NCBI GenBank assembly: GCA_963730015.1
Contig: CAVSPZ010000002.1
Location: forward strand, 138,142 to 202,141
Direction: 5' to 3'
From: an uncultured Acidobacteriota bacterium
Lineage (GTDB): Bacteria; Acidobacteriota; Terriglobia; Terriglobales; Acidobacteriaceae
Length of the DNA: 64,000 nt
The translations under genes and the position numbers were made by a program. The notes beneath the pieces are model-generated. The model saw only the letters and a list, made by a program, of their open reading frames with translations, did no database searches and had not been told where the DNA came from. Numbering within the stretch: position 1 is the stretch's first letter; the number at the start of each line of letters is the position of its first letter. Positions 7,825-46,912 of the stretch are shown piece after piece.

Positions 7825-8200
7825 AATCCGCCCCACAAGGCTTAAGGAAATTGCCAGAATGCTTGAGACGACCGACACCGCCGCCCGCGCAGCCGTTTGG
7901 CGTGAATTTAGACGAGCGCGGTTGAAGCGCTTGAGAAGAAGCCCCCAGGAGAGGCGTCAATGCATTATGAAAGAGCGCCCCGCTTCAGAAGGTCGAAGCC
8001 GGATGAGACGCCGCCTCCGCTCCGCTGCGCTGTGCTGGGCTTCGCTCCGCTACGGCGGCGCTAGAGAGTAACTGCAGTGGTGTGCGCGGTGGAAAAGGAC
8101 TACAGGAGAGTATAGGCAAGTCGGCGGGAGAATGGCACTTTACCTTGAGGGAAAGACAAGCGTCGACACGAATGAGCTTTCCCCCAAGGAGGCAACTCCA

Positions 8201-9271
8201 ATGAGTCACGACGTCAAATATATCGGAATGGACGTGCACAAGGAAGCCATTGTGATCGCTGTGCTGAATAGCACTGGAAAGCTGGTCATGGAAACCATCG
8301 TCGAAACCAAAGCCAGCAGCATTCTGCAGTTTCTCCACGGTCTACGGGGCGAGCTGCACGTGACCTGGGAAGAAGGCACCTGGGCCGCCTGGCTGTATGA
8401 TCTGCTGCAGCCGCAGGTGCAGCACATTGTGGTGTGCAATCCGCGCCGCAATGCCTTGTTAAAGGAGGGCAGCAAGAGCGACAAGGTGGATGCGCACAAG
8501 CTGGCCGACTTGTTACGCACCGGGATGCTGCGACCGGTCTACCACGGAGAACATGGACTACGGACGCTACGCGAGTTGGGGCGCAGTTATCAGACCATCA
8601 GCAAAGATTTGACGCGCGTGATGAATCGATTGAAGGCGCTGTATCGCGGTTGGGGCATTCCTTGTGCCGGCACCCAGGTCTATGCCGCGCGCTCTCGAGA
8701 GGAATGGTTGAGTAAGATTCCGCAAGCCGGGGTGCGCCGCCGCGCGGAGCTGCTCTATCAACAGCTGGACGGATTGCAGGCCTTACGGCGAGACCTCCGA
8801 CCTGAGTTCTTGGCCGAGAGCCGGAAACATAAGGCCGCGAAACTGCTGCGCCAGATTCCCTGCATCGGTCCGATTCGAGCCGCCCGCTTGATCGGGCTGA
8901 TGCAAACCCCGCACCGGTTCCGCAGCAAGCGGCAACTCTGGACCTATAGTGGGCTGGGCATTGAGACGCACGACAGTGCGCAATACCGCTTTGTAATCGG
9001 ACAACTGCAACGCTCCAAGAAACCCCAGCAGATTCGTGGTCTGAATCGAAATCACAACCATGAGATGAAAGAGATCTTCAAGAGTGCGGCCACCAGGGCC
9101 AGCTGTGGCAGGGGGCCGTTCCACGATTTCTACGCGGGTTTGCTGGCCAAGGGGATGAAGCCGGAGATGGCTCGTCTGACGCTGGCGCGCAAGATCGCGG
9201 CCATTACGTTGACACTTTGGAAAAAGGAGGAACGTTTCGACGCCGAACAGCTGAAGACGCAAGCAGCTTGA
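8201..9271 (+). CDS. IS110 family (DEDD) transposase
   Basis: MSHDVKYIGMDVHK start, WEEGTW, SDKVDA and the C-terminal IPCIGPIRAARLIG helix-hairpin region are typical of the IS110 family. AAGGAGG lies 7 nt before the ATG. Element ends not determinable, since the family lacks classical IRs. Confidence 0.9.
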   Translation: MSHDVKYIGMDVHKEAIVIAVLNSTGKLVMETIVETKASSILQFLHGLRGELHVTWEEGTWAAWLYDLLQPQVQHIVVCNPRRNALLKEGSKSDKVDAHKLADLLRTGMLRPVYHGEHGLRTLRELGRSYQTISKDLTRVMNRLKALYRGWGIPCAGTQVYAARSREEWLSKIPQAGVRRRAELLYQQLDGLQALRRDLRPEFLAESRKHKAAKLLRQIPCIGPIRAARLIGLMQTPHRFRSKRQLWTYSGLGIETHDSAQYRFVIGQLQRSKKPQQIRGLNRNHNHEMKEIFKSAATRASCGRGPFHDFYAGLLAKGMKPEMARLTLARKIAAITLTLWKKEERFDAEQLKTQAA

Positions 9272-9895
9272 GCATCGAATAGAACCCAGGTGTCTCCCAA
9301 GGTTTTCATGCCTCGGTGGTGGCCAATCGGTTCTTGCGATGCTCCGGTTCGAGGGAGAGTATCCATTCGCTCATTCAGGCACTCTGTGTGCTGTAGTCCA
9401 GCACCGAGTCTCCGGGTCAATCCTATGCCCCCTCGGATAACCGAAAAAAGCTGTAGGCCTCGAGCCTCACATAGGATCATGGTTGGCACTTAAGCCAACG
9501 TCTTGGCTTGCGTAGCTTCGGAACCGAACGGCGTCGTGCGCCACTGACTTCATGAAACCGTCGAGTTGGGACAAGCAACTGGGGTTGGCATCGCCGCGGA
9601 GAAGTGCGGCGAGCCAAAGCGACCAAACCAATAACCTCTCTAAGAATGAAGTGAGGAATGAGGTAGGGCTGGATGTAAGTCACCACGCCCGCATCTCCCA
9701 GAGGGGCGGGGAGAAGATTTTTCTCTTGACATCCTCTTTCATAGGATGAGCGGATGGCACCCTCCAGGCCCCATAAGAATGTTTCTAACATATTGAATAC
9801 AGAAGCATTAGTTGCTAGCTCGCAGTGACACAAAGGCACCTTGACTTCGACCTCTTTGGCATCTAAACTTTAGATGATAAATCGAGGAGAACAGC

Positions 9896-10405
9896 GTGGA
9901 GTCAGTCGAGCTCAAACTGAAACAGGCCAGCGCAGTACTGGGCATGCCCACGAAGGAACTGCAGAATTTGGTCCAGTTCGGCATCGTCAAGCCACGGCGA
10001 CAAAGGGGACTCTACCTGTTTGACATGGTATGCCTCTACCAGGCACAGGTTGCCGGCCATCTCAAACTCGCCCTGGGAACGCCTGCGAATAAGCTGACGG
10101 AATTTGTGGAAGCTTTTTCTGAATTTCTGAGGAGAGGCAAGAATGAGGTTCCGGACGTGCTGGTGTTCCGATCATCCTCGAAATATTGGACGCGACCGGT
10201 GGAAGTCAGACTTCCTTTCAGGCAGCTGCGCGAGAGCCTTGAGGAGAGACTGCAGCGAGTGGACGTGTATCGCGACTTGCCGCGGGGACGAAAGCGGCCG
10301 AACTGGAAAGCGGAGTTTCTCGCCACTTTGAAAGAAGCTTCGCAGGATATCGGCGACGTTTTGTTTTGGTTCAGCGTGAAATGGAGAAGCGGCGTTCTCC
10401 GTTAG
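9896..10405 (+). CDS. MerR/excisionase-like HTH protein
   Basis: The N-terminal LKQASAVLGMPTKELQNLVQFGIVKP is HTH-like. The rest is unknown. Confidence 0.4.
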   Translation: MESVELKLKQASAVLGMPTKELQNLVQFGIVKPRRQRGLYLFDMVCLYQAQVAGHLKLALGTPANKLTEFVEAFSEFLRRGKNEVPDVLVFRSSSKYWTRPVEVRLPFRQLRESLEERLQRVDVYRDLPRGRKRPNWKAEFLATLKEASQDIGDVLFWFSVKWRSGVLR

Positions 10406-10413
10406 TGTAGATT

Positions 10414-10431
10414 CCGCCCCTTCGGGGCGGG
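10414..10431 (+). terminator. GC hairpin after 9896..10405
   Basis: CCGCCCC-TTCG-GGGGCGG stem-loop directly after the stop codon, followed by GATTTTC. Confidence 0.4.
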
Positions 10432-10548
10432 GATTTTCAAGGCATGGGGGTCTATCGTCCGATGACTCGTTCTGCGCAATGCACAGCGCGAGAGGATTGG
10501 CTCCCGCGCTGCTAAACATCGGCTCGATGAGCCCCACCAGGTTATCCC

Positions 10549-11580
10549 TTAGCATGGTTGCCTCCCGGCAGAGCCCGCTTCCGTTTCACCCGGCGAGGTC
10601 ATTGTAGCTGCGGTAGAAGAGTGTGCAAATCTTAAAGATGCCGTCTGCTGCCGGCGAAGTTGTCGCTGCCTACGAGCGTCTTCTAACTTGCGATCGCGAG
10701 CCGCGTGGATCTCGGCCTGTCGTCCGGTGAGCCTGTCCTGCGGCGTCACATAGCCGATCGCGCTGTGCAGTCGCACCGTGTTGTAGTGATCCACGTACAT
10801 TTGAATCAAACGGCGCGCATCGTCCAGGGTCAACGGCGTCAGAGGCCGAATGCACTCCCGTTTGAGCGACTTATGCCAGCGTTCGATTTTTCCGTTCGAT
10901 TGCGGGTAAAACGGTGAGGTGCGCACGTGCGTCATCCCCGAGATGCGAATGAACTCCTTGAAGTCCCGCGCGATAAACTGCGGTCCGTTGTCGGAGATGA
11001 TCCGCGGCTTGGCGTCCGGGTACTTCTCCTTGGCTCGTTCCAGAATCCTCTCGATATCAGCTTCCTTCATCGACTCTCGCAAATCCCAATGCACCAGAAA
11101 ACGGCTGCATCCATCCAGCACGCTGCATAGGTAATAGAACGTGCCCGACAGGTTGATATAGGAAACATCGACATGCCAGTGCTGGTGCGGCTCGAGCGGC
11201 TGTTCGAAGCCGGTGCCCTTGCGCGACGGCTTCGCTTTCCAGCGCGACAGCAGTCCCGCTTGTCGCAGCACGCGCCATACGCTCGCCGGACTCACGGCCA
11301 CCACATCGTGATCTAACATCATGAACGTTAGTCGCCGATAGCCTTCCAACGGATTCTTCAGATGGAAACTCACGATCGCTTCCTTCTCCCACCGCTCCAA
11401 CCAGAAGTCTCGGGGCACCCAACCGTTGTGCTCATTCACGCGTCCATAGCGCTGCCGCCAGTCGTAGAACTTGCTCACGGTAACGCCCAGCCACGCAATG
11501 AATCGGCCGACGCTGATCTCACTCTTCTCCGACCAGCGCCGGACGAAATCTACCACCTGATCCCGCACATCGTGTGGCAC
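10549..11580 (-). CDS. IS3 family transposase OrfB (DDE integrase core)
   Basis: HWHVDVSY, ISDNGPQF and SPFYPQSNGKIERWHKSLK form an rve-type DDE core. It lies in the -1 frame relative to orfA. Confidence 0.9.
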   Translation of the reverse strand: MPHDVRDQVVDFVRRWSEKSEISVGRFIAWLGVTVSKFYDWRQRYGRVNEHNGWVPRDFWLERWEKEAIVSFHLKNPLEGYRRLTFMMLDHDVVAVSPASVWRVLRQAGLLSRWKAKPSRKGTGFEQPLEPHQHWHVDVSYINLSGTFYYLCSVLDGCSRFLVHWDLRESMKEADIERILERAKEKYPDAKPRIISDNGPQFIARDFKEFIRISGMTHVRTSPFYPQSNGKIERWHKSLKRECIRPLTPLTLDDARRLIQMYVDHYNTVRLHSAIGYVTPQDRLTGRQAEIHAARDRKLEDARRQRQLRRQQTASLRFAHSSTAATMTSPGETEAGSAGRQPC

Positions 11581-11591
11581 CCAGGTCGCGG

Positions 11592-11906
11592 TCAGAGTTC
11601 CCCAAGGCTTTTTTTTAACGCGATGTGCTCCGCCATCAGCTCGGCCAGGACCTCGTCCTTGGTCTGCACCTTCTTCTCCAAGAACTCAATCCGCTTCTGT
11701 TTCTCTTCGGCCTGGCGGCGAGGATGCTCCGTCGTTTGGAAAGCAGCCGCTCCGTTCTCGAACAACTCTTTTTGCCAGCGGTAAAACACGGTGGGTTGCA
11801 GTCCCAGTTCCTCACACAGCTCGGAAACCGGGACCTTGTCTAAAAGATGGCGCCGTAGAATGGCCACCTTCTCCTCAGCTGTGTAGTGCTTGCGCTCTTT
11901 GCTCAT
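11592..11906 (-). CDS. IS3 family transposase OrfA (HTH)
   Basis: MSKERKHYTAEEKVAILRRHL...VSELCEELGLQPTVFYRWQKEL followed by a leucine-zipper-like tail. Confidence 0.9.
   Translation of the reverse strand: MSKERKHYTAEEKVAILRRHLLDKVPVSELCEELGLQPTVFYRWQKELFENGAAAFQTTEHPRRQAEEKQKRIEFLEKKVQTKDEVLAELMAEHIALKKSLGEL
11609..11616 (-). promoter_or_regulatory. A8 slippery run, candidate programmed -1 frameshift site
   Basis: T8 on the plus strand = AAAAAAAA in orfA (..ALKKSLGEL*). orfB lies in the -1 frame, as in canonical IS3 elements. Confidence 0.6.
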
Positions 11907-12039
11907 ACGTTCGCTCCGCTATCTTAACGGACGAACGCTTTCTCCATTTCCAGCTGAGGCGGGACAGTTTCCCCTCAGGACGTTCAGCGTACCATTCGGG
12001 AGTACCGAACTTCCAAGAAGGAAAAGCCGGAGATAACCG

Positions 12040-12498
12040 TTGTCGCAGAAGCGGCGCAAGTCTAGGGGCGTGGTGGACACATCCGTGTTAGTCGCCGGCG
12101 TCGCTGGAATGAAAGACTCGGTCCACCAGAGCAACGTTGCGAGTGCGAAGTTCGTGCAGCGCTGGGTCGAGGACCGGACGTTCGTCTGGCTGATCAGCGA
12201 CGAAATTCTGGAGGAGTACAGAGAAGTGCTCGCCAGGCTTGGCGTCCGGCGCCCTCTCATCGGGAAAATCGTCAACATGCTGCGCGCTAAAGGCGAACCC
12301 GTTAAGCTCGGTCCGACCCGCAATCTTTCTCCTGACCCTGACGACAATCACATTTGTGATTGTGCGGAGTACGGAGATGCCGACTTCATCGTCACGCTGA
12401 ACCCGAAGGACTTTCCCCCAGCATCGCTGCGGGCGAAAGTAATTGGCCCCAGCGACCCACTGCCCGTTCGTCGCACAACAAGTCGGCGCAGAAATTAG
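12040..12498 (+). CDS. PIN-domain toxin-like protein
   Basis: VVDTSVLVAG near the N-terminus, SDEILEEY and DDNHICDCAEYGDADFIVTLNPKDF match the PIN_3-type toxin pattern. No antitoxin ORF seen upstream, where the IS3 copy lies instead. Confidence 0.7.
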   Translation: MSQKRRKSRGVVDTSVLVAGVAGMKDSVHQSNVASAKFVQRWVEDRTFVWLISDEILEEYREVLARLGVRRPLIGKIVNMLRAKGEPVKLGPTRNLSPDPDDNHICDCAEYGDADFIVTLNPKDFPPASLRAKVIGPSDPLPVRRTTSRRRN

Positions 12499-12711
12499 TG
12501 AAACGTAGTAGGGCGGGGACGGCACTCCCCAGTAGAAACAGAGCGAGACTGTTGAATTTCCCTCCTGCAGGGGTTCAACTGTATTAGTTTGAGCTCGACC
12601 TTGCGGACAGGGCTGGCAGGCTCCACGTATCGGACACCGATCCGGCGGATTTTGAGTGCAATCGCGATTTTGCAACAGTGAGCGCGTCGGGTAGCGGCGG
12701 AACATCATTAA

Positions 12712-13317
12712 CTACAAATGAAAATCGAGGCGCCGAGCAACAATGTCCACAAGCTTCTCTCGGCATTTATCTAACTGCCCGCTGTAAAACCTGTACCAGT
12801 AAACGGATTGGTTAGGGCCCACAAGTTGGTTGATGTCGGGGTCCCCCTCGACGGCGTGTCGGAAGACAGCGGCTTCATCTGCTAGGCCCAGATCACGGAG
12901 CGATGCACTAGCGCGCTGGATCCACGCCTCCCGCTTTTGGAGCCAAGGGCCGAAGACGGGTGACCCTTCGTGATGCGGAAGCCCTCGTCTCAGTTCGATC
13001 GCTAGAGCTTCTCCTTCCGTCATAAAGTCACCGAACACGCCGTGCAGGCGTCGTGCTTCAGCTTCATTCTCTCTATCGCGCTTCAGCGCGTCATCGAGGG
13101 AAGCAATCGTAGAGCGTTGGCTGGCGAAAACAAAAACGGCAGCGAGAAAAAAACAAGTGATCAAACAAGCATTGAATAATCTGCCCGCATCCGCCGCTCC
13201 CGGGTGGAAGACAAACAGCCATTCGCGGAACGTCGAGGTGATGCCGCTCATCAGGCCTATTGTGACCAATACCCAGAGCCAAATGTCTTTTCGTAATCCT
13301 GCCCATCGTGGGTTCAT
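12712..13317 (-). CDS. membrane protein, unknown function
   Basis: Two to three N-terminal hydrophobic helices and a soluble tail. Start set at MNPRWAG. Lies downstream of the AlbA_2 gene on the same strand. Confidence 0.45.
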   Translation of the reverse strand: MNPRWAGLRKDIWLWVLVTIGLMSGITSTFREWLFVFHPGAADAGRLFNACLITCFFLAAVFVFASQRSTIASLDDALKRDRENEAEARRLHGVFGDFMTEGEALAIELRRGLPHHEGSPVFGPWLQKREAWIQRASASLRDLGLADEAAVFRHAVEGDPDINQLVGPNQSVYWYRFYSGQLDKCREKLVDIVARRLDFHL

Positions 13318-13380
13318 AGTGGAGGATTTTAAAGCGCAGACCGTCAGGACGCACCTACTCATTGGCGAGGCGGGTGAAGC

Positions 13381-14730
13381 CTAGTTGTCGCGAATGAACT
13401 GTCTCAGTGCAGTTAGAAAGTCGCGGTTGTCACTCTTCCGATGACTTTTCGAGGCCGGGGTGTCAGTGCTTGCGACGAGTTTGATCCCCGTCTCGTGACG
13501 AACGGGATAGGAGAAACGACCTTCTCCGTCGCTTGCACCCACCGACGAACACGCCTGAGAAACCAGGATAATTAGGCATATCTTGTCGCGTTGTTCCCCC
13601 ATCGCGATTTGACGGAACGTGACAATCTCTCGCTCATACTCCAAATACTCGGTCAACACGTCGCGAGCGACCTTCAGGCGGTTTTCGAGATTCTTACCAT
13701 CGCCAATACCGACGATTTCTCGCTGGTCGGTTACACCGATAATGAGAACACCGCCCGTTGTATTCGCAAAACTTGCGACATCTTCCGCAAATGTTCTTTT
13801 GGCCTCCCTCCGCGCCGGCTCGTCTTTCACGTGCCAAATGTTGAGTGTCTCCTTGAAGTCCCACATCTGCGGTTCGGTCGTTTTAACCTTGCTCGTCTTT
13901 GTGATGAACGTGCGCCAAAACTCGTCACTCTCATACAGCTCTCGTTGCTCTTTGAACTTCTCAATGTCGATTTTTATATTCCGAAGTGAGTCTCTGATCT
14001 CTAAGAAATAGTCGGCGCACTTGCCATAAACGGCGTGGGAGGTTCTTCTGACCACCGTTCGCTCGGGTGGAATGATCTCCGTATCAGGAGGTGTGGTTTC
14101 GGGGTCCATACTCTCGAAAATCTCGAACCCGACTTCATGGTAGGTGTCCCAATAGACAAAGCGCCCTCTCTCACGAACACCAAGGGCAATTTCTGCGAGT
14201 GCACGACGGGTTTCTTTCTCCCATCCGCCGGTTTCTTCGCCAACCCATTTCATATCCCGGTCGGCCATCCTGGTAGAACCCCAGACACGGTAGGTAAAGA
14301 GCATGCACGGCGCCATTGCATGGCGCTTTTCAAGCAACCCGACATATTTGTGCAAAGCATCGATCTCGGCCTGGTGTTTATCGGCAAACTCTCTCAGGCT
14401 CAGGAGCAGAACCTCATACGATTCCGTCTCTCTACTTTTCAACTTCGCGGAATCGGTTTTCAAAACCTGCGCCGCGTTTAGCGCCTCTCCGGTCATGGCC
14501 AGCAGTTCGTCAACATTGGTTTCGTTCTCGAAAATCCACCAATGGATCTCGTCTTGACCGACATGGACTCCGAACTCGGTCCACTCCGTCGTCCAGCCAA
14601 ACTCCTTCTTGACTTGACTAAACCGTGCTTGATCCATGGCGTGAGCCGCTTTTAGGATCGCGCCGTGTACTTCTCCGAGCCTTAATGTGGCGTCAGAGAA
14701 CAGGACATCGCGCATGCGGTCATCGAGCAT
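13381..14730 (-). CDS. AlbA_2/Schlafen-type domain protein with large unknown N-terminal domain
   Basis: The C-terminal WDFKETL...EDVASFANTTGGVLIIGVTDQREIVGI matches the AlbA_2 (divergent AAA / Schlafen-like) signature. The first ~290 aa are unrecognisable. Confidence 0.65.
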   Translation of the reverse strand: MLDDRMRDVLFSDATLRLGEVHGAILKAAHAMDQARFSQVKKEFGWTTEWTEFGVHVGQDEIHWWIFENETNVDELLAMTGEALNAAQVLKTDSAKLKSRETESYEVLLLSLREFADKHQAEIDALHKYVGLLEKRHAMAPCMLFTYRVWGSTRMADRDMKWVGEETGGWEKETRRALAEIALGVRERGRFVYWDTYHEVGFEIFESMDPETTPPDTEIIPPERTVVRRTSHAVYGKCADYFLEIRDSLRNIKIDIEKFKEQRELYESDEFWRTFITKTSKVKTTEPQMWDFKETLNIWHVKDEPARREAKRTFAEDVASFANTTGGVLIIGVTDQREIVGIGDGKNLENRLKVARDVLTEYLEYEREIVTFRQIAMGEQRDKICLIILVSQACSSVGASDGEGRFSYPVRHETGIKLVASTDTPASKSHRKSDNRDFLTALRQFIRDN

Positions 14731-14866
14731 TATTCCTCCCGAAACATTTGGGACGGTACAAGTACAGTGATCTTAACCGTGCGGATGGAAGCCTAAGGGA
14801 AAAGAATTTCGAGACCCGAGTTCCGAGTTCGCGATAATACACTCGGGAAGTCGTGGCTATTACAGT

Positions 14867-15232
14867 TCAACATGCATCGATGTAGAAAACCAATTCCCCG
14901 TGTTTTCCGATGGAACTCCGCCATTGTTTGGACAAGCTCCGCATATTGTCGATCAAAACGATCAGGTCATTCCCGTTAACAGCTACCCCTTGTTCCCCCA
15001 TACTGTCTTTGAAACTGGCCGCACTGAAGCGCTCGTCTGCTTCCATGTAGTCCAGAACCTTTCTGCCGTTTTCAAGCCAGACGACCTGTTTGTCCCCGTA
15101 TTCGTGCTGGTCGCTCGCCGTACCCACCCTGGCGGCAAGGTCGTGGAGCAGCACAATCAACTTCTCCGGTTCGATGAAGCAGGACGAGTGTGCACTCCAT
15201 ATTTCTTTCACTGCCCGAAAGCTTTGGCTCAT
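14867..15232 (-). CDS. hypothetical protein, last gene of the E2/E1 cassette
   Basis: 121 aa from the ATG that overlaps the ThiF-like stop (ATGA). No recognisable motif. Confidence 0.45.
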   Translation of the reverse strand: MSQSFRAVKEIWSAHSSCFIEPEKLIVLLHDLAARVGTASDQHEYGDKQVVWLENGRKVLDYMEADERFSAASFKDSMGEQGVAVNGNDLIVLIDNMRSLSKQWRSSIGKHGELVFYIDAC

Positions 15233-16077
15233 TGCCTGACCACCTTCCTTCTCTTGCGTTTGGGTAATTCGTAATCTGCCGAGTGGGTCCTCATCCGCTG
15301 CCATAGGGCCGGGTCGACAGCGAGTGAGGTTGTGCGCCCCGTTCGCAGATTCACGAACCCGCCGTGGTACGAGAGCCGCCCATATCGGAATAGCCGCGCC
15401 AGCATTGCCAGCGCCTGGTAGGCGAGTGTCTGGTTCACGAATGGCTCTTGCCGCGCCAACGCTTCCAACGCGCTGCACGGTGGAAGTCTGTCTTTTTTGT
15501 CGAGCATTGGGTTGATGAGCTCAGGGAAAAGTTCCGAAGCTGTCGGCAAGCGCGAGTCTCGCGCTTTGTTTCGCTGGTTTTCGGGCTGGCCCAACACGAA
15601 CTGACCACTATCGGCATTGTTGCCCAGATCCAGCCAATAGTGGCAGTTCCAGTAGGTTTGCGTGCGCGTCATCGCGTTCCGGGCGGCACGAGAATCAACG
15701 CAGCCGATCAGGATGTCGGTCTCATGTCCCCAGTTCTCATCGACGAAGTGTGGCACTCCTTTCCAGCCAAGGCCCCAAAACAGATTGATCCGGGTGGCGA
15801 GTACTGTCGCCTTGTGCAGTCCGATCTCACTCTCACTGAAAGGTTGGCGGACGCAGTTGGTGCGGGAGATCCGGTCGCCGTCGACCAAGGTCACGTCCAG
15901 TCGATGCGGATGTCCTAAAGCGACGATGGCTTGGTGCAGATACGGCAATCCGGCCGCTATGGCGCTTCCCGTCCCACCACAACCGACTACGGTGATCAGA
16001 ACGTTCTTTTGCAGCAGTGCGCCAGGAATCTTGTGCTCAGTCTTCGTGGCGGTTGTCGTTTCGATAGCTGTGGTCAT
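15229..16077 (-). CDS. ThiF/E1-like adenylyltransferase (PRTRC-type)
   Basis: VVGCGGTGS Rossmann loop, LVDGDRISRTNCVRQPF adenylation motif and ILIGCVDSRAAR. The overall pattern is as in PRTRC-system ThiF family proteins. Confidence 0.85.
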   Translation of the reverse strand: MTTAIETTTATKTEHKIPGALLQKNVLITVVGCGGTGSAIAAGLPYLHQAIVALGHPHRLDVTLVDGDRISRTNCVRQPFSESEIGLHKATVLATRINLFWGLGWKGVPHFVDENWGHETDILIGCVDSRAARNAMTRTQTYWNCHYWLDLGNNADSGQFVLGQPENQRNKARDSRLPTASELFPELINPMLDKKDRLPPCSALEALARQEPFVNQTLAYQALAMLARLFRYGRLSYHGGFVNLRTGRTTSLAVDPALWQRMRTHSADYELPKRKRRKVVRQ

Positions 16078-16798
16078 CGTTCCTCACGAATTCCGCGAGT
16101 GTCTGCGGCAGCTTCACCAGGTATTTCTCTGGAAACGCTTTTTGTCCCGCTAGGGATTGCCACATCGCTAGGAAGCCGCCGCGAAACCGAACGTGTTTGC
16201 GAACGCCTGAGGCGTGCGTGAATTCGCTCTGGAAGAACGACTCCTCCCACAAGTCAACGGCAGTGACCGACTTCTCCTGCGGAATCTTCATGCTCCCAGT
16301 GCAACACACGCCGTTGTCGTAGCAGTTCCAGTACGGCGCCATGCAAAGTTGTGTTGCGGCCCTAGGCCGTTCGTTCTTAGCAAGAGCTCGAACCCACAAG
16401 TGAGATCCGCACGCCTTGAGCAGCAAGGGCGGGTGGGGATAGCGCTTGCCATTCATGCCCTCCAAGGCAAGGTCGTTGCCCCGGTCGCTGAAGAACATCG
16501 TCCGTTCGCAGGCTGGGGTCCACCACACGATCATTTCCGCCGTGCGCACCAGCACGCGCGCCGGCAAAATCTCGGCTGGAACCGACCTTCCAAGACCGGC
16601 CATCAGGTCGATCAGCATCTGCGGCGTCATCAACTGGCCTTCCGCCAGTCGCGCTACGTCGCCGTCATGGATCACTTCATGGAGAGTTACAAAAGGATGG
16701 CGATACGGGTAGCCGTCATAGCTGCTCTTCCCGTACACGAGCAGTGCCCGGCTCAACCGGAAGTCCTGACTTGATCCGATGTTCACGGAGATATTCAT
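16037..16798 (-). CDS. E2/UBC-like protein (Prok-E2_B / PRTRC protein B-like)
   Basis: LSRALLVYGKSSYDGYPYRHPFVTLHEV, MAPYWNCYDNGVCCTGSMKIP and FFQSEFTH are motifs I associate with PRTRC protein B. This is from memory, not searched. Start set at MNISVN. Confidence 0.6.
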   Translation of the reverse strand: MNISVNIGSSQDFRLSRALLVYGKSSYDGYPYRHPFVTLHEVIHDGDVARLAEGQLMTPQMLIDLMAGLGRSVPAEILPARVLVRTAEMIVWWTPACERTMFFSDRGNDLALEGMNGKRYPHPPLLLKACGSHLWVRALAKNERPRAATQLCMAPYWNCYDNGVCCTGSMKIPQEKSVTAVDLWEESFFQSEFTHASGVRKHVRFRGGFLAMWQSLAGQKAFPEKYLVKLPQTLAEFVRNDDHSYRNDNRHED

Positions 16799-17819
16799 CG
16801 TAGAGATCCCTGACGAGTTCAACGATCTTGGCAGCGGAGGCCAACGACCGAAGCATCGCGCTGGCGTGATCGAAGACGCGTCGCATTTCTTCATCCAGCT
16901 CTTTCACCGGCCTGTTGAGGTGAATGGGAAGCGCCACATTCGGCTGGCAAGGGCCGTTTTCGCCCATGTGTTGCGCCTCTTCATCAAAGCAGGCGTTAAT
17001 TGCATCACCCTCGTACCAGGTGATCAGACATCCGGGCCGGGAATAGTCAGCATCCGAGAGCCACGTGTCGATGCCTGGTACGTCCTTCTCACTGATCTGG
17101 CCGGGCCACGCATGCTCGTGCCCTTGGCCATGAGCATCCATCTCAAGCAGGTGGCGGATCAGCTCGCGGGCCACGCTTGTGTACACCCGGATCTCCTCAA
17201 GCAAGCTTCTGGCTCTCCTGTATTTGAGCGTCTTCGAGTGCCTCTTGATACAGACCGGGATTTCCATATCCACTTTGCGATAGGTCGATGCTTCCAGTTC
17301 CTCGTCGCTCAGATCCTCCATCCACATCTCGGCGTGCTCCTGGGCGTCGAGGTAGTCGTACACGCGCATCCATTTGTACAGGTTGGTGGTGAGGACCTCG
17401 TAGAAAGCGACCGGCAGAAGATTATGCTCGGCTTCAAGGCGTGCGAGTGTCGCGCCAATTGGAATGGAAGCGGCAGCCTCGTAGTCGCCGACCAGATACA
17501 GATGATCAGCCATTCCCTCTCTATCGGCTTCAACCTGATTTCGCTCTTGCTCCGTCAGCTCGAAGAGACTGTCCGTAATTCGCAGGTCGCCAACCCAGAC
17601 TTTCTTAACATCAGCGGCGCGATTCTGAGAGCAAAACCTCCTAAAACCGCGTTCGACAAAGTCCACCGCGCTACCCGACCAGTCATTGGAGCGGCAAATT
17701 CCCAGCCGCAACAGGCTCATTCCCAAAACCGCAGCAGGCCCTTCATCCCACCTCGTGCAGTAGCGCCATCGAATTCCCTTGAGCCTGGGGAACGTAACGT
17801 CTAGCGGCAGTCCGATCAC
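16716..17819 (-). CDS. hypothetical 367-aa protein of the E2/E1 cassette (possibly PRTRC protein F-like)
   Basis: A GTG start overlaps the stop of the 88-aa ORF (GTGA). Acidic and helical. Contains HEHAWPGQISEKD. No confident domain call. Confidence 0.5.
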   Translation of the reverse strand: MIGLPLDVTFPRLKGIRWRYCTRWDEGPAAVLGMSLLRLGICRSNDWSGSAVDFVERGFRRFCSQNRAADVKKVWVGDLRITDSLFELTEQERNQVEADREGMADHLYLVGDYEAAASIPIGATLARLEAEHNLLPVAFYEVLTTNLYKWMRVYDYLDAQEHAEMWMEDLSDEELEASTYRKVDMEIPVCIKRHSKTLKYRRARSLLEEIRVYTSVARELIRHLLEMDAHGQGHEHAWPGQISEKDVPGIDTWLSDADYSRPGCLITWYEGDAINACFDEEAQHMGENGPCQPNVALPIHLNRPVKELDEEMRRVFDHASAMLRSLASAAKIVELVRDLYDEYLREHRIKSGLPVEPGTARVREEQL

Positions 17820-18082
17820 ACGAGCGGTGGAATGACCACGCCGCTGGGCGGTAAGTATCGATCTCCGAGTTCGGCTCCGTCCTGAGCGTATTTGAGCGAG
17901 TCGAACGCCTTGCCTAGAATTTCCCCCACTTCGAATGCTTCTGGACATTGCTTCAATTGCTCCACGATGGGATCGTTCGTATTGGCGCGGCCATGCGTAG
18001 CTTCTGCCAACGCTCGCAGCACCCGCTTCGCATCTTCATCGATGGTTCGGCAGGCTGCGGCAGCTAGTATCCTGTGCTTCAT
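17816..18082 (-). CDS. hypothetical 88-aa protein, first gene of the E2/E1 cassette
   Basis: ORF coupled to the next gene by a GTGA overlap. Predicted helical. No C-terminal Gly-Gly. Confidence 0.4.
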   Translation of the reverse strand: MKHRILAAAACRTIDEDAKRVLRALAEATHGRANTNDPIVEQLKQCPEAFEVGEILGKAFDSLKYAQDGAELGDRYLPPSGVVIPPLV

Positions 18083-18273
18083 GGAAATCGCCTCTTATGA
18101 CGTTTGATTGACCGTGGAATTGTGGCCCTTGTGTAAGACAGTACGCCTCCATCCACGTTCGGCTGTCGATGGACTCACGAAGCTCGATGTCGGCAGTTAC
18201 GTTCCCGAGTCTGTGATATTTGCGCTCTGGGCAGGCTGTTGGGTATGGGCTACAATTGCCGCAGAGGAACCGT

Positions 18274-18480
18274 ATGATGACTGACCCAGCCTCCGCCATC
18301 AAACGTCAAGTTCACCAATTGGTTGATCTGCAAATCGAAACGCTGCGACAACCGTCGTGTTTGACTACTTCGGATCTGCTTGACTATCGCGTGCGTTCCG
18401 AGAAAATCGCCGGGTTGTACAAAGAGTTGGACCAGACACGAAGAACCAGCTTCAAGGGCCAATTGCGCAGAGCGTCTTAG
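18274..18480 (+). CDS. small conserved hypothetical protein (paralog of 6371..6577)
   Basis: MMTDPASAIKRQVHQLVDLQIETLRQPS... is colinear with the 6371 ORF. GAGGAA precedes the ATG. Confidence 0.5.
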   Translation: MMTDPASAIKRQVHQLVDLQIETLRQPSCLTTSDLLDYRVRSEKIAGLYKELDQTRRTSFKGQLRRAS

Positions 18481-18485: not shown

Positions 18486-18980
18486 ATGTCAAATCCAGTG
18501 TATGTGTCCAACGTTCGGATTGAACGGCGCTCGGGGCCGCTTCGAATAGCGCGCCTGCCCGGGGAATCGCAGCCGGTATTCTTCAGCGTCCATGGAGCCA
18601 TTGCCGAGCATTATGGATTAGATCCAGCAAAACTACCCGAATCGCATGCGGCGACGCTTGATTATGTTGTGGCCGCCCTTGGTGGTTGAATGATCGGAAC
18701 CTTCGGGGGCGCGCTGGATGCGCGCAAAATAGATGCGAGCAATGGCCGGTTGCGTGCCGAAGTGAGAGGGGAAATCGAATCCGATCAGGGGGTTCTAGTA
18801 ATTCGCCGAGTTCACGTTCACTACTTACTTGATGGAGCCGAGCAGGCCAGGGAGACCGTGGAACGCGTCCATCGCGTATACGCGGACAAGTGTCCCGTTT
18901 ACAAGACACTGCGGCCTGCTTTCGAAATTACCTCAGATTTTGAACTTACAAGGACAAGCGCGACGGAAGGTACGCGATGA
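18486..18980 (+). CDS. OsmC/Ohr family peroxiredoxin with in-frame TGA at 18687-18689 (candidate selenocysteine)
   Basis: ORFs 18486..18689 and 18690..18980 are in the same frame, separated only by TGA. The joined sequence reads ..DYVVAALGG-[TGA]-MIGTFGGAL.., where OsmC proteins have the peroxidatic Cys. The second Cys motif, KCPVYKTL, is present. Confidence 0.7.
18709..18725 (+). promoter_or_regulatory. candidate SECIS-like hairpin
   Basis: GCGCGC-TGGAT-GCGCGC (6-bp stem, 5-nt loop) begins 22 nt after the U of the in-frame UGA. Confidence 0.3.
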
Positions 18981-19663
18981 CTCTTCAACAAAAGCTGGAT
19001 GACTTTAAAGCAAACTTCGAATCCGGCGGCCCTCCTTACAACGCTCCCAAGGCGGTGATCGAAATCTTTCATCGGGCTACGGAAGAGCTGCGCCAGTCCG
19101 GATTGGCCGAACGCGCTCTGAAGACCGGCGATCGGGCGCCGGCATTCGCCCTGAATAACCAGGACGGAAACTCGATCTCGTCTGCCGAACTCCTTGCAAA
19201 AGGCCCGCTGGTAATCACTTTCTTCCGTGGCCACTGGTGACCCTACTGCAACATGGAGCTGGAGGCTCTACAAGCAGCTTTGCCCGAAATACAGCGCCTG
19301 GGAGCCAGCCTAGTGGCAATTTCCCCGCAATTGGAGAGGTACGGACGTTCGATCCACCGTCGCCTCAGTCTGGGTTTCGATGTACTGACGGACCGTGGGT
19401 TGCAAGTCGCAGCACAATTTGGCCTCGTATTCACGCTTCCCGATTACCTGAAAACGGTTTATGTACAGTTCGGAAACAAGTTGGACGAGTTCCACGGCGA
19501 GAACGCTTTCCGCTTGCCGATGCCCGCACGATACGTCGTTGACCAACAAAGCCTGATTCGTAGCGCCAACGTGAGCCCGGATTACACTATACGTCCGGAC
19601 CCAAGTGAAACCATCAGCACGCTGGAGGAACTCAGGAAGGCGCGCTGCATGGAGCTCGATTAG
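18977..19663 (+). CDS. AhpC/TSA-type redoxin with in-frame TGA at 19238-19240 (candidate selenocysteine, UxxC)
   Basis: ORFs 18977..19240 and 19253..19663 share a frame. The joined sequence reads ..VITFFRGHW-[TGA]-PYCNMELEAL.., the W-C-P-Y-C redox motif with TGA replacing the first Cys. The start overlaps the OsmC-like stop (ATGA). Confidence 0.7.
19254..19270 (+). promoter_or_regulatory. candidate SECIS-like hairpin
   Basis: TGGAGC-TGGAG-GCTCTA (6-bp stem including one G-U, 5-nt loop) begins 16 nt after the U of the in-frame UGA. The loop starts UGGA, like the hairpin at 18709. Confidence 0.3.
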
Positions 19664-19865
19664 ATCTTCGGAAACGACCGGAAGTGCTGCAGGACTGGCG
19701 CCAAGATTTGCTATCGATTTCATGCTTCTACCTGTGTGAAACGATGTAAACACCGGTCGGTGATGTTGTACATGCACCCACTGCTGTCCAAATTAGCCGG
19801 GATTGAGGAGCAGGAGTAAGGGAATTGGGGCATTTTCTGCTTCTCAGTGGTCGCTCCCAGGTTGA

Positions 19866-21112
19866 GGTTGCCATTCTGCTGTCCAAGTTGGGTTACCAGG
19901 AAAGCGGGATTTGCTCGGCGATGTGAGCGAGTTGGGGCGGGGGTTGAAAGGGTTGATCGATCCAGGAGAACAGATCGCGATAGACGAACAGTTGCTGGCG
20001 CAGCAGAGCGGCGAGATTGGACAGGCTCCAACCGAAGCGGGCACGCAGTTGCAGGTACTTGAGCAGGAGCATGGCAATCAGCGCGGTCCAGACCTGAATC
20101 TGCAGCGCATTGGCGCTGATGCCAACGAAAGTTTTGATGCGGAGGTTTTGTTTGAGCGCCTTGAAAAACAATTCGATCTGCCAGCGCTGACGGTAGATAG
20201 CGGCGACAGTGGAGGCGGCAAAGCGGCGATGATTGGTGAGAAACACCAGGGTGCGTTGCTGCGCGTCGTCCCAGACCTCGATGCGGCGCAGGAACAGATC
20301 GCGCTCGCCGCTGCGGGCCAACTTGTACAGAAAGATGATCTCATCGTGCTGGACGGGGCCGCGCTCAGGCACGGGGCGGCGTTCCACAACACCGTAATCG
20401 GCGTTGTCTTTCATGCGGGTGACGAAGTAGACATCGTCGGCGTCGAGCGCAGAGAACCAGGCATAGTCGGTATAGCCACGGTCGAAGACCACGATGGCGC
20501 CGGGATCGAAGCGCAGCGTGCGGGCCACGCGGCTCTCATGCACGCGGCCTTCGGTGACGAGGGCAAAACTGGGCAGCAGCCCTTGATGATCGAGCAGCAG
20601 ATGCAGCTTCACAGCGCCCTTGGTGCGCCGGTACTGCGCCCAGTCGAAGACGCTGGCGCAGAGTTCGATCAGGGTGGCGTCCAGGCTCAGCAGTTTGTTC
20701 TTGAAGCGGAAACCATGCGGACCGGAAGCTTCGCGGCAGCGACCCAGCAGTTGATAGAACACGGCGCGGTACAACTGCCATGGCCGGTGCTCGTTGGCAT
20801 AGGCCAAGGTGGAGCGCTTGGGCGCATCGGGCAATCCCAAGTGCCGCAACTTGCCTTCGCTGGCGGCCAGTCCGCCGCAAATCTCGCGCAAGGACTGCGC
20901 CCGCCCCAGGTGACAGAACAACATGGCCACGAACTGTCCCCAGCAACTGAACCCGCGAGCGTGGCGCTCGGCCCGGTGCTCGGAAACGGCCTGTTCAAAC
21001 TCTGGCCGGGAAAACAACTGCAACATCTGGCTGAAAATGCTGGATACTCGTATCACGGCGGTGGTGGCCCTCCCTACGATTCACGTCTCGCAACGCAAAC
21101 CGTAGCAGAGTT
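19866..21112 (-). mobile_element. IS4 family insertion sequence (ends approximate)
   Basis: Single DDE transposase ORF. Weak terminal inverted similarity (GGTTGCCATTCTGCTGTCC near 19866 versus CCGTAGCAGAGTTCTACC near 21095). Confidence 0.7.
19893..21056 (-). CDS. IS4 family DDE transposase
   Basis: SLDAT, VFDRGY and YRQRWQIELFFKALK (Y-2-R-3-E-6-K signature). The N-terminal FSQMLQLFSRPEFEQAV domain is typical of the IS4Sa-like group. Confidence 0.9.
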   Translation of the reverse strand: MIRVSSIFSQMLQLFSRPEFEQAVSEHRAERHARGFSCWGQFVAMLFCHLGRAQSLREICGGLAASEGKLRHLGLPDAPKRSTLAYANEHRPWQLYRAVFYQLLGRCREASGPHGFRFKNKLLSLDATLIELCASVFDWAQYRRTKGAVKLHLLLDHQGLLPSFALVTEGRVHESRVARTLRFDPGAIVVFDRGYTDYAWFSALDADDVYFVTRMKDNADYGVVERRPVPERGPVQHDEIIFLYKLARSGERDLFLRRIEVWDDAQQRTLVFLTNHRRFAASTVAAIYRQRWQIELFFKALKQNLRIKTFVGISANALQIQVWTALIAMLLLKYLQLRARFGWSLSNLAALLRQQLFVYRDLFSWIDQPFQPPPQLAHIAEQIPLSW

Positions 21113-22306
21113 CTACCCCCGCCGCTCAAAACCTAATTTGGACAAGAGTGACATGCACCCAAACAGAAATGATCTCGGGATTCTGTCAGAGAGAAGCCTG
21201 GACGTCGATATTTCTTCAAGTCGCTGCAGACATCTCGAATGAAACTGCGTCCCATTATCGCTCAACTCGCCTGCATCCAGCTTCGCACGCAAAGCGAGAA
21301 GGGCTGCCGATACCTCACTTTCGAGAAGAGGACGTTCCTCAATATCAAGATACTTCGGCCGCAGAATCTCCCGGAGATACTCAGAACGCTGCTCTAAGGC
21401 CGTCTTCACGACATCGTCTGGGAGCAGCGCCCGTTTCATCTTACTCTCCAGTCTTTTTCCCGCGGCTTGGGCGGGATGCAGCATTTGGTCAACCGTGTTT
21501 CGGAGCCAGGCGACTAGTTCCTCCCGGCGAATCTTCTTTTCATTTGGCGCTTTCCGGAACTTTGCTGTTGCTGCATCCCACGCCTTTCGTACAAGCTTCG
21601 CGTATAACTCTTCTAGCTGATCAGACGCAACCAGATACCCAAGACTGTTGATAGCCCGATGGAGACGCTGAAGATTGCGATGCTTCTCGGAATCCAAGTC
21701 ATGAGCTATCTGCCAGAATGTCTCTTGTACCCAGAAGGCGACATCGTGGTTGTTGGGAGAACGAACGCTTGCCAGTTTCTCACACAGCTTAGTCGCAAGC
21801 TGTCGAAGTTCATCCGCAGCTTTGATTCGTGCCTCGCAGTTTCGGACAAGGCTCAATGGCTCAAGATCTTTGTTTATTGGCCGTGCAGTTACGATTCGAA
21901 AACAACACGCTTCCTGGCAGCGGTCATTCGCGAGCGACTTCTCCACAATGCACTTGCCAACACCTTTACTGTCACGGGTGGGTTCGGCTTCCGTGAGTTT
22001 TGCAATTGACCACAACTGTTCAAGCTCACTTCCCTTGACTTGAATAAACTCGACTTGCAGTCCACAACCTGATTGCATTTCCAAAAGCAACATCACGTCA
22101 TCGTGAGTTTCGCACCAGATTTCCTTAATTGTGGAATCGACCAAAGCGTCGATGCACAGACCTGCCACGATGTGATCTTGGAAACCCAGACCCCGGCGTG
22201 CAACTTCTCCACCTTGTTCCAACGGTTCCAGATCAAATATTGATTGCGGACGCGGCAATGTTTCTGGTGCTTGATCAGACATAGCTAAGTTGTCCGTTTC
22301 CAACAC
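21113..22306 (-). CDS. DUF4297/Cap4-like dsDNA nuclease domain protein
   Basis: The N-terminal GGEVARRGLGFQDHIVA...IWCETHDDVML...VEFIQVKG fits the DUF4297 PD-(D/E)xK pattern. Long helical C-terminal part. The stop abuts the IS4 end. Visibly AT-richer than its surroundings. Confidence 0.6.
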   Translation of the reverse strand: MLETDNLAMSDQAPETLPRPQSIFDLEPLEQGGEVARRGLGFQDHIVAGLCIDALVDSTIKEIWCETHDDVMLLLEMQSGCGLQVEFIQVKGSELEQLWSIAKLTEAEPTRDSKGVGKCIVEKSLANDRCQEACCFRIVTARPINKDLEPLSLVRNCEARIKAADELRQLATKLCEKLASVRSPNNHDVAFWVQETFWQIAHDLDSEKHRNLQRLHRAINSLGYLVASDQLEELYAKLVRKAWDAATAKFRKAPNEKKIRREELVAWLRNTVDQMLHPAQAAGKRLESKMKRALLPDDVVKTALEQRSEYLREILRPKYLDIEERPLLESEVSAALLALRAKLDAGELSDNGTQFHSRCLQRLEEISTSRLLSDRIPRSFLFGCMSLLSKLGFERRG

Positions 22307-22576: not shown

Positions 22577-22651
22577 GGCGGCGTCGTCTAACGGCCAGGA
22601 TGCGGCCCTTTCAAGGCTGAGATGGGAGTTCGATTCTCCTCGCTGCTACCA
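22577..22651 (+). tRNA. tRNA-Glu(UUC)
   Basis: Manual cloverleaf. Acceptor GGCGGCG/CGCTGCT, D-arm GTCT..GGAT as in Glu tRNAs, anticodon stem CGGCC/GGCTG, loop CTTTCAA, T-loop TTCGATT, CCA encoded. Confidence 0.8.
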
Positions 22652-22848
22652 AACCTATGAGTACACAAACGATTGAACTCGAAGGCTTTGAGATCGAGCT
22701 TGCATCGGACCTTTACTGCGGTCACGGCGGGGATCATCGGGAATTGGTTGATCGTGCGCGTACGGATCGGAGGAGACTTGGCCACAACGTCGATGAATCG
22801 GCCGTTTTGTGTGTACGGTGCATGAAAGCAATACCGCTGAAAGCGTGA

Positions 22849-22922
22849 TGCCGGGTCGTCTAGTGGCAGGACCCTGGACTTTGAATCCGGGTACGGGCGT
22901 TCGAATCGCTCCCCGGCAGCCA
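22849..22922 (+). tRNA. tRNA-Gln(UUG)
   Basis: U1-A72 and G73 (Gln identity). Anticodon stem CTGGA/TCCGG, loop CTTTGAA, T-loop TTCGAAT, CCA encoded. Confidence 0.85.
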
Positions 22923-22941
22923 GTTCTTTGACAATCGAAAT

Positions 22942-23012
22942 TCCCTCCTCGTCCAATGGCAGGACGCTGCGCTCTGAACGCGGAAATCGTGGTTCAAGTC
23001 CACGGGAGGGAG
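22942..23012 (+). tRNA. tRNA-Gln(CUG)
   Basis: Acceptor TCCCTCC/GGAGGGA, G73, loop CTCTGAA, T-loop TTCAAGT. Followed by only CC before the next tRNA. Confidence 0.8.
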
Positions 23013-23014
23013 CC

Positions 23015-23088: not shown

Positions 23089-23097
23089 AAAGTTTGC

Positions 23098-23172: not shown

Positions 23173-23174
23173 GA

Positions 23175-23249: not shown

Positions 23250-23250
23250 A

Positions 23251-23326: not shown

Positions 23327-23345
23327 AGTTAGTAAGCATGTTCGA

Positions 23346-23514: not shown

Positions 23515-23516
23515 CC

Positions 23517-46033: not shown

Positions 46034-46309
46034 TCAATACTCTTGCGGCAACAGAAGAGTGGTCGCCGAGCGGTCCGCCTCGGTGATCACCCATAGCTTC
46101 TCCCCACTGGCGGTCGCGTAGCTGCTCAACAGCCGAAATCCGTGTGCCACACTGTATTCGTTCTCGGCGACGTCGGCCGAATCAAGTTCGCCCCAGTCTC
46201 CTGTTGCATGGCGTACCAGGAAAACCGCTGGGGACTGCTTCGCTCGCTCCAGCGCTGAGACTGCAGCGGGAGTCGCCACGATTTGCCCAAGTGGGAACAA
46301 TGCAAACAT
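46034..46309 (-). CDS. small ICE/plasmid-associated protein of unknown function
   Basis: MFALFPLGQIVATP...RHATGDWGELD...WVITEADRSATTLLLPQEY is a motif set I know from integrative-element accessory regions. Confidence 0.5.
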   Translation of the reverse strand: MFALFPLGQIVATPAAVSALERAKQSPAVFLVRHATGDWGELDSADVAENEYSVAHGFRLLSSYATASGEKLWVITEADRSATTLLLPQEY

Positions 46310-46400
46310 GGAAGTGACTCCTTTCGTTCGCTTCTCCAAAACCAGTTCAGTTTTGTTAGTGGAATGGAGCGGCGGTCCGGCGCCGGTACCGCCGAGTTAG

Positions 46401-46826
46401 TTAGAACGATTGGGAGAAGCGGGCTTCCAGAAATTCTCCCAGCTTGGCTGTCGCCTTAAACTGCGGGATGGGATCCAGTTCCTTGAATGCCGAAGTGAAC
46501 GCATTCGAAAGACTCCAGATCGTGCGCGGCCGGAAGTCCTCGTACGTGGGCTCGAAGTACAGATCGTGTACCGTGCGCGCCAAATGCTTCGGAGCTTCCA
46601 GTTGGCCCTCCACAAATGCCTCGTAGATGACCACTTTAGCGGTGACGTCTGTCAACTCACTCCTCTGCCAAGCTTCCACCTGCTTTCGCATGGGCTCGAA
46701 GTTTCGCTGCATCCGATCAACGCCCACCGAAATGCAGTCGATCAGCGAGAACGACTTCGAATGTTTGGCGAGCACCGGCGTAAACACGCCTGGGACAATG
46801 TTTCCAGATTCCGGTCCCGTGAACAT
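46401..46826 (-). pseudogene. C-terminal fragment of a DUF932 (phage/plasmid-like) gene
   Basis: Only about 140 aa, ending ..KATAKLGEFLEARFSQSF. Full-length family members are about twice as long. The upstream part has been replaced by the IS110 copy. Confidence 0.6.
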
Positions 46827-46912
46827 TAGATCTCCCAGAATGTATGGTCCGCCGCCCGACTACAAGGAGAGATTCTTGGACGAAGTATAGTCTGCGCAAA
46901 TGTATCCGGCCT

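Follow-up and report, generated by a model that had tools for sequence, protein, structure and literature searches.

Operon type 6d belongs to the bacterial operon families combining E1-like, E2-like and ubiquitin-like (Ubl) proteins that were predicted in 2006. Iyer, Burroughs and Aravind listed as its components a Ubl, a JAB protein, proteins resembling E1 and E2, and a "rapidly diverging alpha-helical protein", and described its E2 as having no classical His and a conserved His C-terminal to the catalytic Cys (PMC1779556). This operon type is the PRTRC system, whose name stands for 'ParB-related, ThiF-related cassette'; its canonical form (TIGR03734-03742) is found on conjugative plasmids and integrative and conjugative elements. 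We found no experimental study of PRTRC in the literature accessible to us: searches on the function of PRTRC or Prok-E2_D returned genome descriptions only, and one preprint expands the acronym wrongly. Here we describe a PRTRC-type locus in a stretch of 64,000 nucleotides (64 kb; referred to as the window) from an uncultured Acidobacteriota bacterium (assembly GCA_963730015.1, contig CAVSPZ010000002.1, positions 138,142 to 202,141). An E1-like and an E2-like gene are located there next to three further genes, g88, g367 and g121, and an earlier note made from the sequence alone had regarded the group as an orphan cassette of possibly minimal architecture. We consider it very probable that the locus is the 3' portion of an Acidobacteriota PRTRC variant on an integrated element, and that its genes for proteins E and C were lost beside an insertion sequence (IS).

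Six annotated plasmid loci represent canonical PRTRC in our comparison. Their gene orders are ParB-E-C-F-B-A-ThiF (Cupriavidus necator pHG1), ParB-E-C-hyp414-B-A-ThiF (Xanthomonas citri plasmid), ParB-E-C-hyp74-hyp269-B-A-ThiF (Sphingobium xenophagum plasmid), ParB-E-C-hyp367-B-ThiF-UvrD-A (Pelobacter propionicus pPRO1), ParB-E-C-hyp458-B-ThiF (P. aeruginosa megaplasmid) and E-C-hyp338-B-ThiF-hyp136 (Tunicatimonas pelagia plasmid, NZ_CP120684.1). The protein between C and B is mostly annotated as hypothetical (hyp). Protein A (JAB) and ParB are not always adjacent to the other genes; A is non-adjacent in three of the six. Genes found next to the plasmid cassettes encode ParB, SSB, DnaN, SNF2 helicases, DUF932 proteins and UmuDC.

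On the acidobacterial side we compared the window with 39 sister loci. A scan with g367, limited to one genome per species, yielded 38 of them; the remaining one (L047) was found through a g88 homolog 99% identical to that of the window. Flanking sequence of up to 10 kb per side was fetched. Acidobacterial and canonical loci have the order E-C-...-F-B-ThiF in common, and both lie in a mobile-element context with an SNF2-type helicase and a DUF932 gene nearby. The acidobacterial loci differ in having neither ParB nor protein A within the fetched sequence, in carrying g88 between C and F and g121 past ThiF, and in being part of a chromosomally integrated element of hosts in the phylum Acidobacteriota. 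The window copy additionally lacks E and C. It is a variant of the known PRTRC cassette that lacks ParB and JAB and has gained two conserved genes, a description that holds for the acidobacterial loci as a group. With regard to operon type 6d, the window E2 shows the same arrangement of Cys (C166) and downstream His (H195), whereas the listed JAB component is absent from the whole acidobacterial group within the fetched flanks. The plasmid of Tunicatimonas offers a precedent: it has the same reduced set of E, C, F-like, B and ThiF genes with no ParB or A annotated nearby, and like the window it has a small ORF (open reading frame) past ThiF, with a product of 136 aa that, judged by eye, appears unrelated to g121. 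However, its protein B is only 26% identical to that of the window and there is no equivalent of g88.

Bil (BilABCD), Bub and the Cap2/Cap3 proteins of type II CBASS are experimentally proven analogues of the mechanism we propose below (PMC11601603). They likewise rely on E1-like and E2-like chemistry on a C-terminal Gly. In contrast to the acidobacterial cassette they use other E1 and E2 families, only the ATP-binding stretch of our E1 matching Cap2 models (E ~1e-6); they have no F, E, g88 or g121, and they include a JAB protein or deubiquitinase. In PADLOC the component sets of Bil, type II CBASS and Bub were not found, the partial E1 matches to CBASS E1-E2 models being weak (E >= 1.9e-6) and confined to residues 20-100.

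A PRTRC-type E1/E2 pair in a five-gene operon

The earlier note had described five chained minus-strand ORFs forming one translationally coupled operon. Their sizes, coordinates and overlaps agree with the ORF list (Table 1), and all five ORFs are intact. The stop/start overlaps GTGA (17816-17819) and ATGA (15229-15232) are seen directly in the sequence; those of 83 nt (g367/E2) and 41 nt (E2/E1) were derived from the coordinates. A Shine-Dalgarno-like GGAAGG precedes the start of g121. Pairwise ratios of nonsynonymous to synonymous substitution rates (dN/dS) against the sister loci range from 0.12 to 0.32 for all five genes, which argues for genuine coding genes under purifying selection. The order g88-g367-E2-E1 is kept in every sister locus spanning these four genes, and g121 is present in 25 of the 39. 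The five ORFs form a tightly coupled operon, and its gene order recurs in other genomes.

The predicted assignment of the two enzymes to PRTRC was correct, as both exceed the curated cut-offs of their families. The E1-like protein matches TIGR03736 (PRTRC ThiF) over its full length with 266.5 bits (cut-off 144.75) and also Pfam PF00899. The E2-like protein matches TIGR03737 (PRTRC protein B) with 172 bits (cut-off 131.45); its Pfam family is Prok-E2_D (PF14460, 4.7e-37), not Prok-E2_B as had been proposed. We aligned both proteins with their counterparts from the six plasmid loci. In E1 the GxGGxG loop (G32, G34, G35, G37), D66, N74, R77, Q78, K89, D128, R133, D150 and the C201-S202 pair are invariant. 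In E2 the same holds for P155, N158, C166 and G168, and H195 is 90% conserved. The motifs quoted earlier for the two enzymes are present and fall on conserved columns of this alignment. A pair of Cys residues had been pointed out in E2; C166 is invariant, while the other Cys of the pair is not. Cys166 is the putative catalytic Cys, with His195 downstream. PHROGs gave no match for any of the five window proteins, and profile searches of the PDB with B, F, g88 and g121 gave chance-level matches only, with no solved structure related by sequence to B or F.

The ubiquitin-like partner in sister loci

Clustering of ORFs across the sister loci revealed two genes upstream of g88 that the window lacks. 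The first encodes PRTRC protein C, a Ubl of 67 aa ending in ...AIGAKG, which matches TIGR03738 with 93.5 bits (cut-off 45.95) and PF14454 (Prok_Ub) with 82-84 bits. The second encodes PRTRC protein E, a protein of ~170 aa with matches to PF19556 and to TIGR03741 (78 bits, cut-off 37.95). C is located upstream of g88 in 34/39 sister loci and E in 33/39; L047 carries both E and Prok_Ub. In ten sister loci C ends 17-19 bp before g88. As C and E precede g88-F-B-ThiF in most sister loci, the consensus cassette is E-C-g88-F-B-ThiF-g121.

In the window, the Ubl and E of the sister loci were not found by tblastn (best E = 0.87), nor was anything detected at E <= 1 with hidden Markov models (HMMs) of the C, E, A and ParB proteins of canonical plasmid loci. 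The absence of a Ubl, JAB or ParB gene noted before therefore holds for all 64 kb. Likewise, at E <= 1 neither protein A (TIGR03735, a JAB peptidase with a JAB-N domain; HMM from four plasmid proteins) nor PRTRC ParB (TIGR03734; HMM from five) was found in the 39 sister loci. Protein D (TIGR03739) had no match among the 8 window and 10 sister-locus proteins scanned against NCBIfam and is not annotated in the six plasmid loci.

Acidobacterial protein C has Gly as its last encoded residue, so that no processing peptidase would be needed; this fits a cassette without JAB. Protein C has C-terminal extensions in pHG1 and Xanthomonas, both of which carry protein A, whereas the acidobacterial C has none. 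The extension in pHG1 comprises 5 aa. The X. citri protein (L044 5258-5653) has 131 aa, with a Ubl domain ending in ..TKG followed by 60 aa; here the Gly would become free only after cleavage, for which the JAB protein A encoded next to it is the presumed enzyme.

An orphan E1/E2 pair of minimal architecture, acting on the C-terminus of a target, on g88 or g121 or on a non-protein moiety, was the reading suggested by the window, where Ubl, JAB and ParB are missing and the genes are intact and constrained. There is precedent in CBASS, as Cap2 achieves E1-E2 conjugation of a non-Ubl C-terminus (PMC11601603). The sister loci do not bear this reading out for the family. Five of them lack C. In two of these the sequence does not extend upstream, another two show clear signs of degradation, and the last is L018, the sole sister locus with an intact g88 and sufficient upstream sequence (9.7 kb) but no E or C. 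Among the 35 sister loci in which g88 is intact and preceded by 600 bp or more of sequence, 34 carry Prok_Ub, and the state without E and C is rare and scattered. In addition, the ends of g88 (PPLV) and g121 (Cys) are not typical of E1 substrates, and the window carries a deletion footprint at an IS (see below). A truly minimal module is hence very improbable, and a non-Ubl substrate is no longer needed to explain the window copy.

Most sister loci come from metagenome-assembled genomes (MAGs) of Terriglobales or Ca. Sulfotelmatobacter. One locus each belongs to a MAG labelled Dormibacterota, Alphaproteobacteria or Ca. Aquilonibacter. In L023, L030 and L025, located on long contigs of MAGs labelled as other phyla, protein F is 72-90% identical; these cassettes are due either to spread of the element between phyla by horizontal transfer or to mis-binning.

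The junction upstream of the window operon

We compared the operon and the upstream AhpC/OsmC block with the sister loci L013, L036 and L047 using blastn and found nucleotide identities of 91.8%, 89.2% and 93.4%, respectively. In these relatives the AhpC/OsmC block has PRTRC C on one side and g88 on the other. Against each of the three, homology breaks at position 19640, 23 nt short of the AhpC-like stop codon, so that the 3' end of this gene is clipped. Beyond this point the relatives continue with C and then E (L047 has a gene for a 137-aa protein ahead of C); next come a variable gene and a tRNA array that the loci share. The window continues with 138 unmatched nt, an IS4-like element, a HamA-like gene and the tRNA array, where homology to the three relatives resumes. 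The IS4-like element, whose transposase (19893-21056) matches DDE_Tnp_1 and DUF4372, is absent from the sister loci and sits where those carry E and C.

Given the shared breakpoint, the clipped AhpC-like gene and the IS nearby, the window copy appears to be secondarily truncated, its sequence bearing the marks of a deletion or replacement beside an IS. An IS-fragmented PRTRC locus had been named in the earlier note as an outcome that would speak against its own reading, and a break 138 nt from the IS4-like element is what we observed. The stretch with E and C would have been replaced by the IS4-like element and the HamA-like cargo gene, a change that would also have taken the 137-aa gene found next to C in L047 and the last codons of the AhpC-like gene. 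Such a replacement makes the E1/E2 pair look orphaned.

Several points weigh against this reconstruction. The end of the IS is 138 nt away from the breakpoint and the intervening segment is unexplained, so that the involvement of the IS in the deletion is something we infer. All window ORFs are intact with their catalytic residues kept, and their dN/dS values against relatives are no higher than those among intact loci. E, C or another copy of the element may lie beyond the 64 kb searched. The absence of decay indicates that the loss is recent, that it is complemented in trans or, least likely, that the enzymes use another substrate.

Complementation in trans would mean that the window cassette is still functional, with C and E supplied by a second copy of the element in the same genome. 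Some MAGs do hold several cassettes, three in MFD01299.bin.2.91 (L002, L015, L033) and two in MFD05705.bin.2.13, and the intact, constrained window genes would agree with continued use. However, there is no second copy within the window, and a recent deletion explains the lack of decay equally well. We regard this explanation as unlikely. As E and C are gone from the window, the reaction would have no cis-encoded Ubl to run on: the window copy is a remnant too young to have decayed, or else it depends on a Ubl from another copy of the element.

Protein F and the two small companion genes

The 367-aa ORF, left unassigned in the earlier note, appears to be a diverged PRTRC protein F; the homology is well supported, with the curated cut-off not reached. 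Its position between C and B is that of F or of the F-like "hypothetical" protein in the six plasmid loci, and g367 would be the mostly helical protein of operon type 6d. It has 465 close homologs, almost all from Acidobacteriota metagenomes, and a profile search of 1.84 billion representative proteins yielded 271 relatives. TIGR03742 (PRTRC_F) is matched by 15 of 50 aligned sequences of the family; window g367 itself has no match to it at E <= 0.01. Comparison of the g367 family with the six plasmid proteins at the F position gave a hhalign probability of 89.8% (E = 1.8e-6) over 296 columns, nearly end to end. This worked only with the deep alignment from the profile search; a shallow alignment (Neff 1.46) was not successful, and BLASTP of g367 yielded no significant match to protein F of pHG1 or to the F-like protein of Pelobacter. 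The AlphaFold2 model based on the deep alignment (pLDDT 89.8, pTM 0.87) is mostly helical with a small sheet, while the shallow alignment gave an unusable model (pLDDT 49). Foldseek detected no fold match of the model in the PDB (best E = 0.26). A single weak match in BFVD to A0A6J5L345, an uncharacterised protein of an uncultured Caudovirales phage (E = 3.3e-4, TM 0.36), was taken as uninformative.

The genes g88 and g121 are new conserved companions, known only from the acidobacterial cassette group. For g88 we found 590 close homologs, nearly all called at 88 aa. It is present in 35/39 sister loci, always directly upstream of protein F and translationally coupled, with a dN/dS of ~0.3. Its conserved core reads DPIxEQLKQCPEAFKVGE...LPPxGxxIPPLV, with C46, K58, P78, P79 and G81 invariant and PPLV as the C-terminus. 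The product of g121 has 375 close homologs and no domains and ends in an invariant Cys (..FYIDAC); its dN/dS is ~0.17. Searches of Pfam, NCBIfam, PADLOC, PHROGs and the PDB gave no match for g88 and detected no relative of g121, and neither has a counterpart in the six plasmid loci, where the g88 HMM gave nothing significant (best E = 0.66).

The view that neither small protein looks like a Ubl or JAB protein agrees with the candidates we rejected, and no resemblance to PRTRC A, C or E was seen for either. A diverged Ubl (PRTRC C) was considered for g88; BLASTP gave no alignment, and the true C gene is separate in the sister loci. No relation was found between g121 and PRTRC E, nor between g121 or g88 and PRTRC A (JAB-N), of which they might have been remnants. 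ThiF matches of the g121 HMM were discarded because ORF clustering had merged C-terminal fragments of E1 into the profile. The C-terminus of g88, LPPSGVVIPPLV, resembles the end of the 74-aa Sphingobium ORF between C and the F-like gene (PPPGLRLAPLG) and the C-terminal extension of Xanthomonas protein C (LLIPMA); we treat both resemblances as anecdotal.

Element backbone and cargo genes

Conserved backbone genes surround the cassette in the sister loci. Upstream these encode a DUF6094 methyltransferase, a 223-aa protein, an SNF2-type helicase, DUF932 and c22, and downstream c12 and a TSCPD protein. The variable inserts keep to fixed slots; among them are AbiE, Fic, NorB, AhpC/OsmC, HamA-like, AlbA_2 and large proteins without assignment. 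In the window, homology to the sister loci stops at 14865 past g121 and resumes at 7824 against L005, with window-specific cargo in between. The DUF932-c22 pair, located just upstream of PRTRC E in sister loci, is found in the window 28 kb upstream of the cassette, where an IS110 transposase gene abuts it. The truncation of DUF932 by IS110 represents further IS damage to the element; at least five IS elements are present in the window (IS4-like, IS21-like, IS3 and two IS110).

The surroundings had been described as a defence-flavoured island. AlbA_2, PIN and HamA-like genes are indeed present, but as variable cargo and not as conserved partners of the cassette. This bears on the idea that the cassette is itself a Bil- or CBASS-like Ubl-conjugating anti-phage module in a defence island, which would agree with the weak PADLOC matches of the E1 ATP-binding region to CBASS E1-E2 models (E ~2e-6) and with the HamA-like, AlbA_2, PIN, AbiE and Fic genes nearby. 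The other proteins (E2/B, F, g88 and g121) have no PADLOC match, however. Moreover, the defence-like neighbors vary by locus and sit in insertion slots, while the cassette belongs to the invariant backbone, and plasmid cassettes adjoin ParB, SSB, DnaN, SNF2 helicase and DUF932 genes. Such a module is in our view quite unlikely, and an anti-defence role is equally possible as one in defence. Since the cassette lies in the conserved backbone and the defence-like genes in variable slots, it more likely serves the element, in its establishment or maintenance, than the defence of the host against phages.

In about a third of the sister loci HTH_3 and Fic genes are inserted between ThiF and g121, which are then parted by this cargo (e.g. 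L002 12808-13844, L047 12885-15321, L010 12623-15068); in some cases a further Fic gene, DUF4172-Fic, lies on the opposite strand. The insert resembles a toxin-antitoxin-like module carried as cargo at a fixed site.

Neighboring genes and further features

The remaining features of the window are listed together with the cassette in Table 1.

Table 1. Coordinates of the cassette genes, the junction and other features of the window.
Feature	Position	Strand	Description
g88	17816..18082	-	88 aa; ORF list
g367	16716..17819	-	367 aa, GTG start; ORF list
E2-like gene	16037..16798	-	253 aa; ORF list
E1-like gene	15229..16077	-	282 aa; ORF list
g121	14867..15232	-	121 aa; ORF list
Junction segment	19641..19778		138 nt, no match in any sister locus
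IS4-like element	19779..21150	-	18-nt terminal inverted repeats at 19779-19796 and 21133-21150
up86	18220..18480	+	86 aa, directly upstream of and divergent from g88
OsmC/AhpC block	18486..19663	+	shared with L013, L036 and L047
OsmC-like gene	18486-18980	+	one in-frame TGA at 18687-18689 (..ALGG-TGA-MIGT)
AhpC/TSA-like gene	18977-19663	+	one in-frame TGA at 19238-19240 (..RGHW-TGA-PYCN)
HamA-like/Cap4-nuclease gene	21113-22306	-	PADLOC HamA 7e-55
tRNA array	22577-23835	+	13 tRNA genes within 1.26 kb
Window-specific cargo past g121	7825..14864		AlbA_2/SLFN, 216-aa ORF, PIN_3, IS3-family, IS110-family
IS3	10549-11906		
IS21-like	24361-26783		
Backbone remnant	46037..46889	-	truncated DUF932 gene and 91-aa c22, tblastn 77-78% identity
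IS110 transposase	46913-47893	-	abuts truncated DUF932-c22 pair
tRNA-like gene	48233-48309	-	4-base anticodon ctcc (ARAGORN)

The gene up86 has no family match. It occurs at the same position in 13 sister loci, in twelve of them detected by tblastn with 57-86% identity (L005, L009, L012, L013, L016-L018, L021, L023, L025, L030, L036) and in L047 as a gene called at this position; as a guess, it might regulate the cassette.

The OsmC-like and AhpC-like genes are each split by a single in-frame TGA, and the same split is seen in L047. When the TGA is read as Cys, the Pfam matches of both genes span it. The TGA of the AhpC-like gene would yield a UxxC motif, and peroxiredoxin-like proteins usually have a redox Cys at the corresponding position. 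Both genes are candidates for selenoproteins.

No HamB helicase gene is located beside the HamA-like gene. The right inverted repeat of the IS4-like element lies inside the last codons of the HamA-like gene, which suggests that the same IS event may have removed the Hachiman partner gene. The slot by the tRNA array is variable, being occupied in L047 and L013 by genes for proteins of 1519 aa and 392 aa, respectively, without Pfam matches. The array itself comprises tRNA genes for Glu, Gln (two), Asp, Trp, Gly (two), Cys, Thr (three), His and Ala; it has nucleotide homology to L013, L036 and L047, where it lies upstream of PRTRC E.

Discussion

Both the mechanism considered here and a role of the cassette for its element are drawn from homology and gene context, which also counsels caution about our account of the locus as a whole. 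In an intact cassette, family knowledge suggests that ThiF would adenylate the C-terminal Gly of protein C. Protein B would then receive the Ubl on Cys166, perhaps by way of the invariant Cys201 of ThiF, and hand it on to a target. Protein F may be an adaptor, an E3-like factor or an enzyme, and a role as accessory subunits or as substrates would fall to E, g88 and g121. We also considered a more far-reaching version, a self-sufficient JAB- and ParB-free Ubl-conjugation machine with g88 and g121 as obligate subunits or substrates, the window copy staying active with a trans-supplied Ubl or with a substrate that is not a Ubl. We think this version improbable.

The finding that E and C precede this E1/E2 pair in most relatives carries a general lesson: apparent orphan E1/E2 pairs should be compared with sister loci before a minimal architecture is proposed. 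For protein F a confident model is now available (pLDDT as given above), for which the PDB holds no fold match. The window copy leads to a large group of Acidobacteriota cassettes with hundreds of homologs in soil and peat metagenomes, in which no JAB or ParB gene lies nearby. The place of the cassette in the backbone directs experiments to the establishment or maintenance of the element over host immunity.

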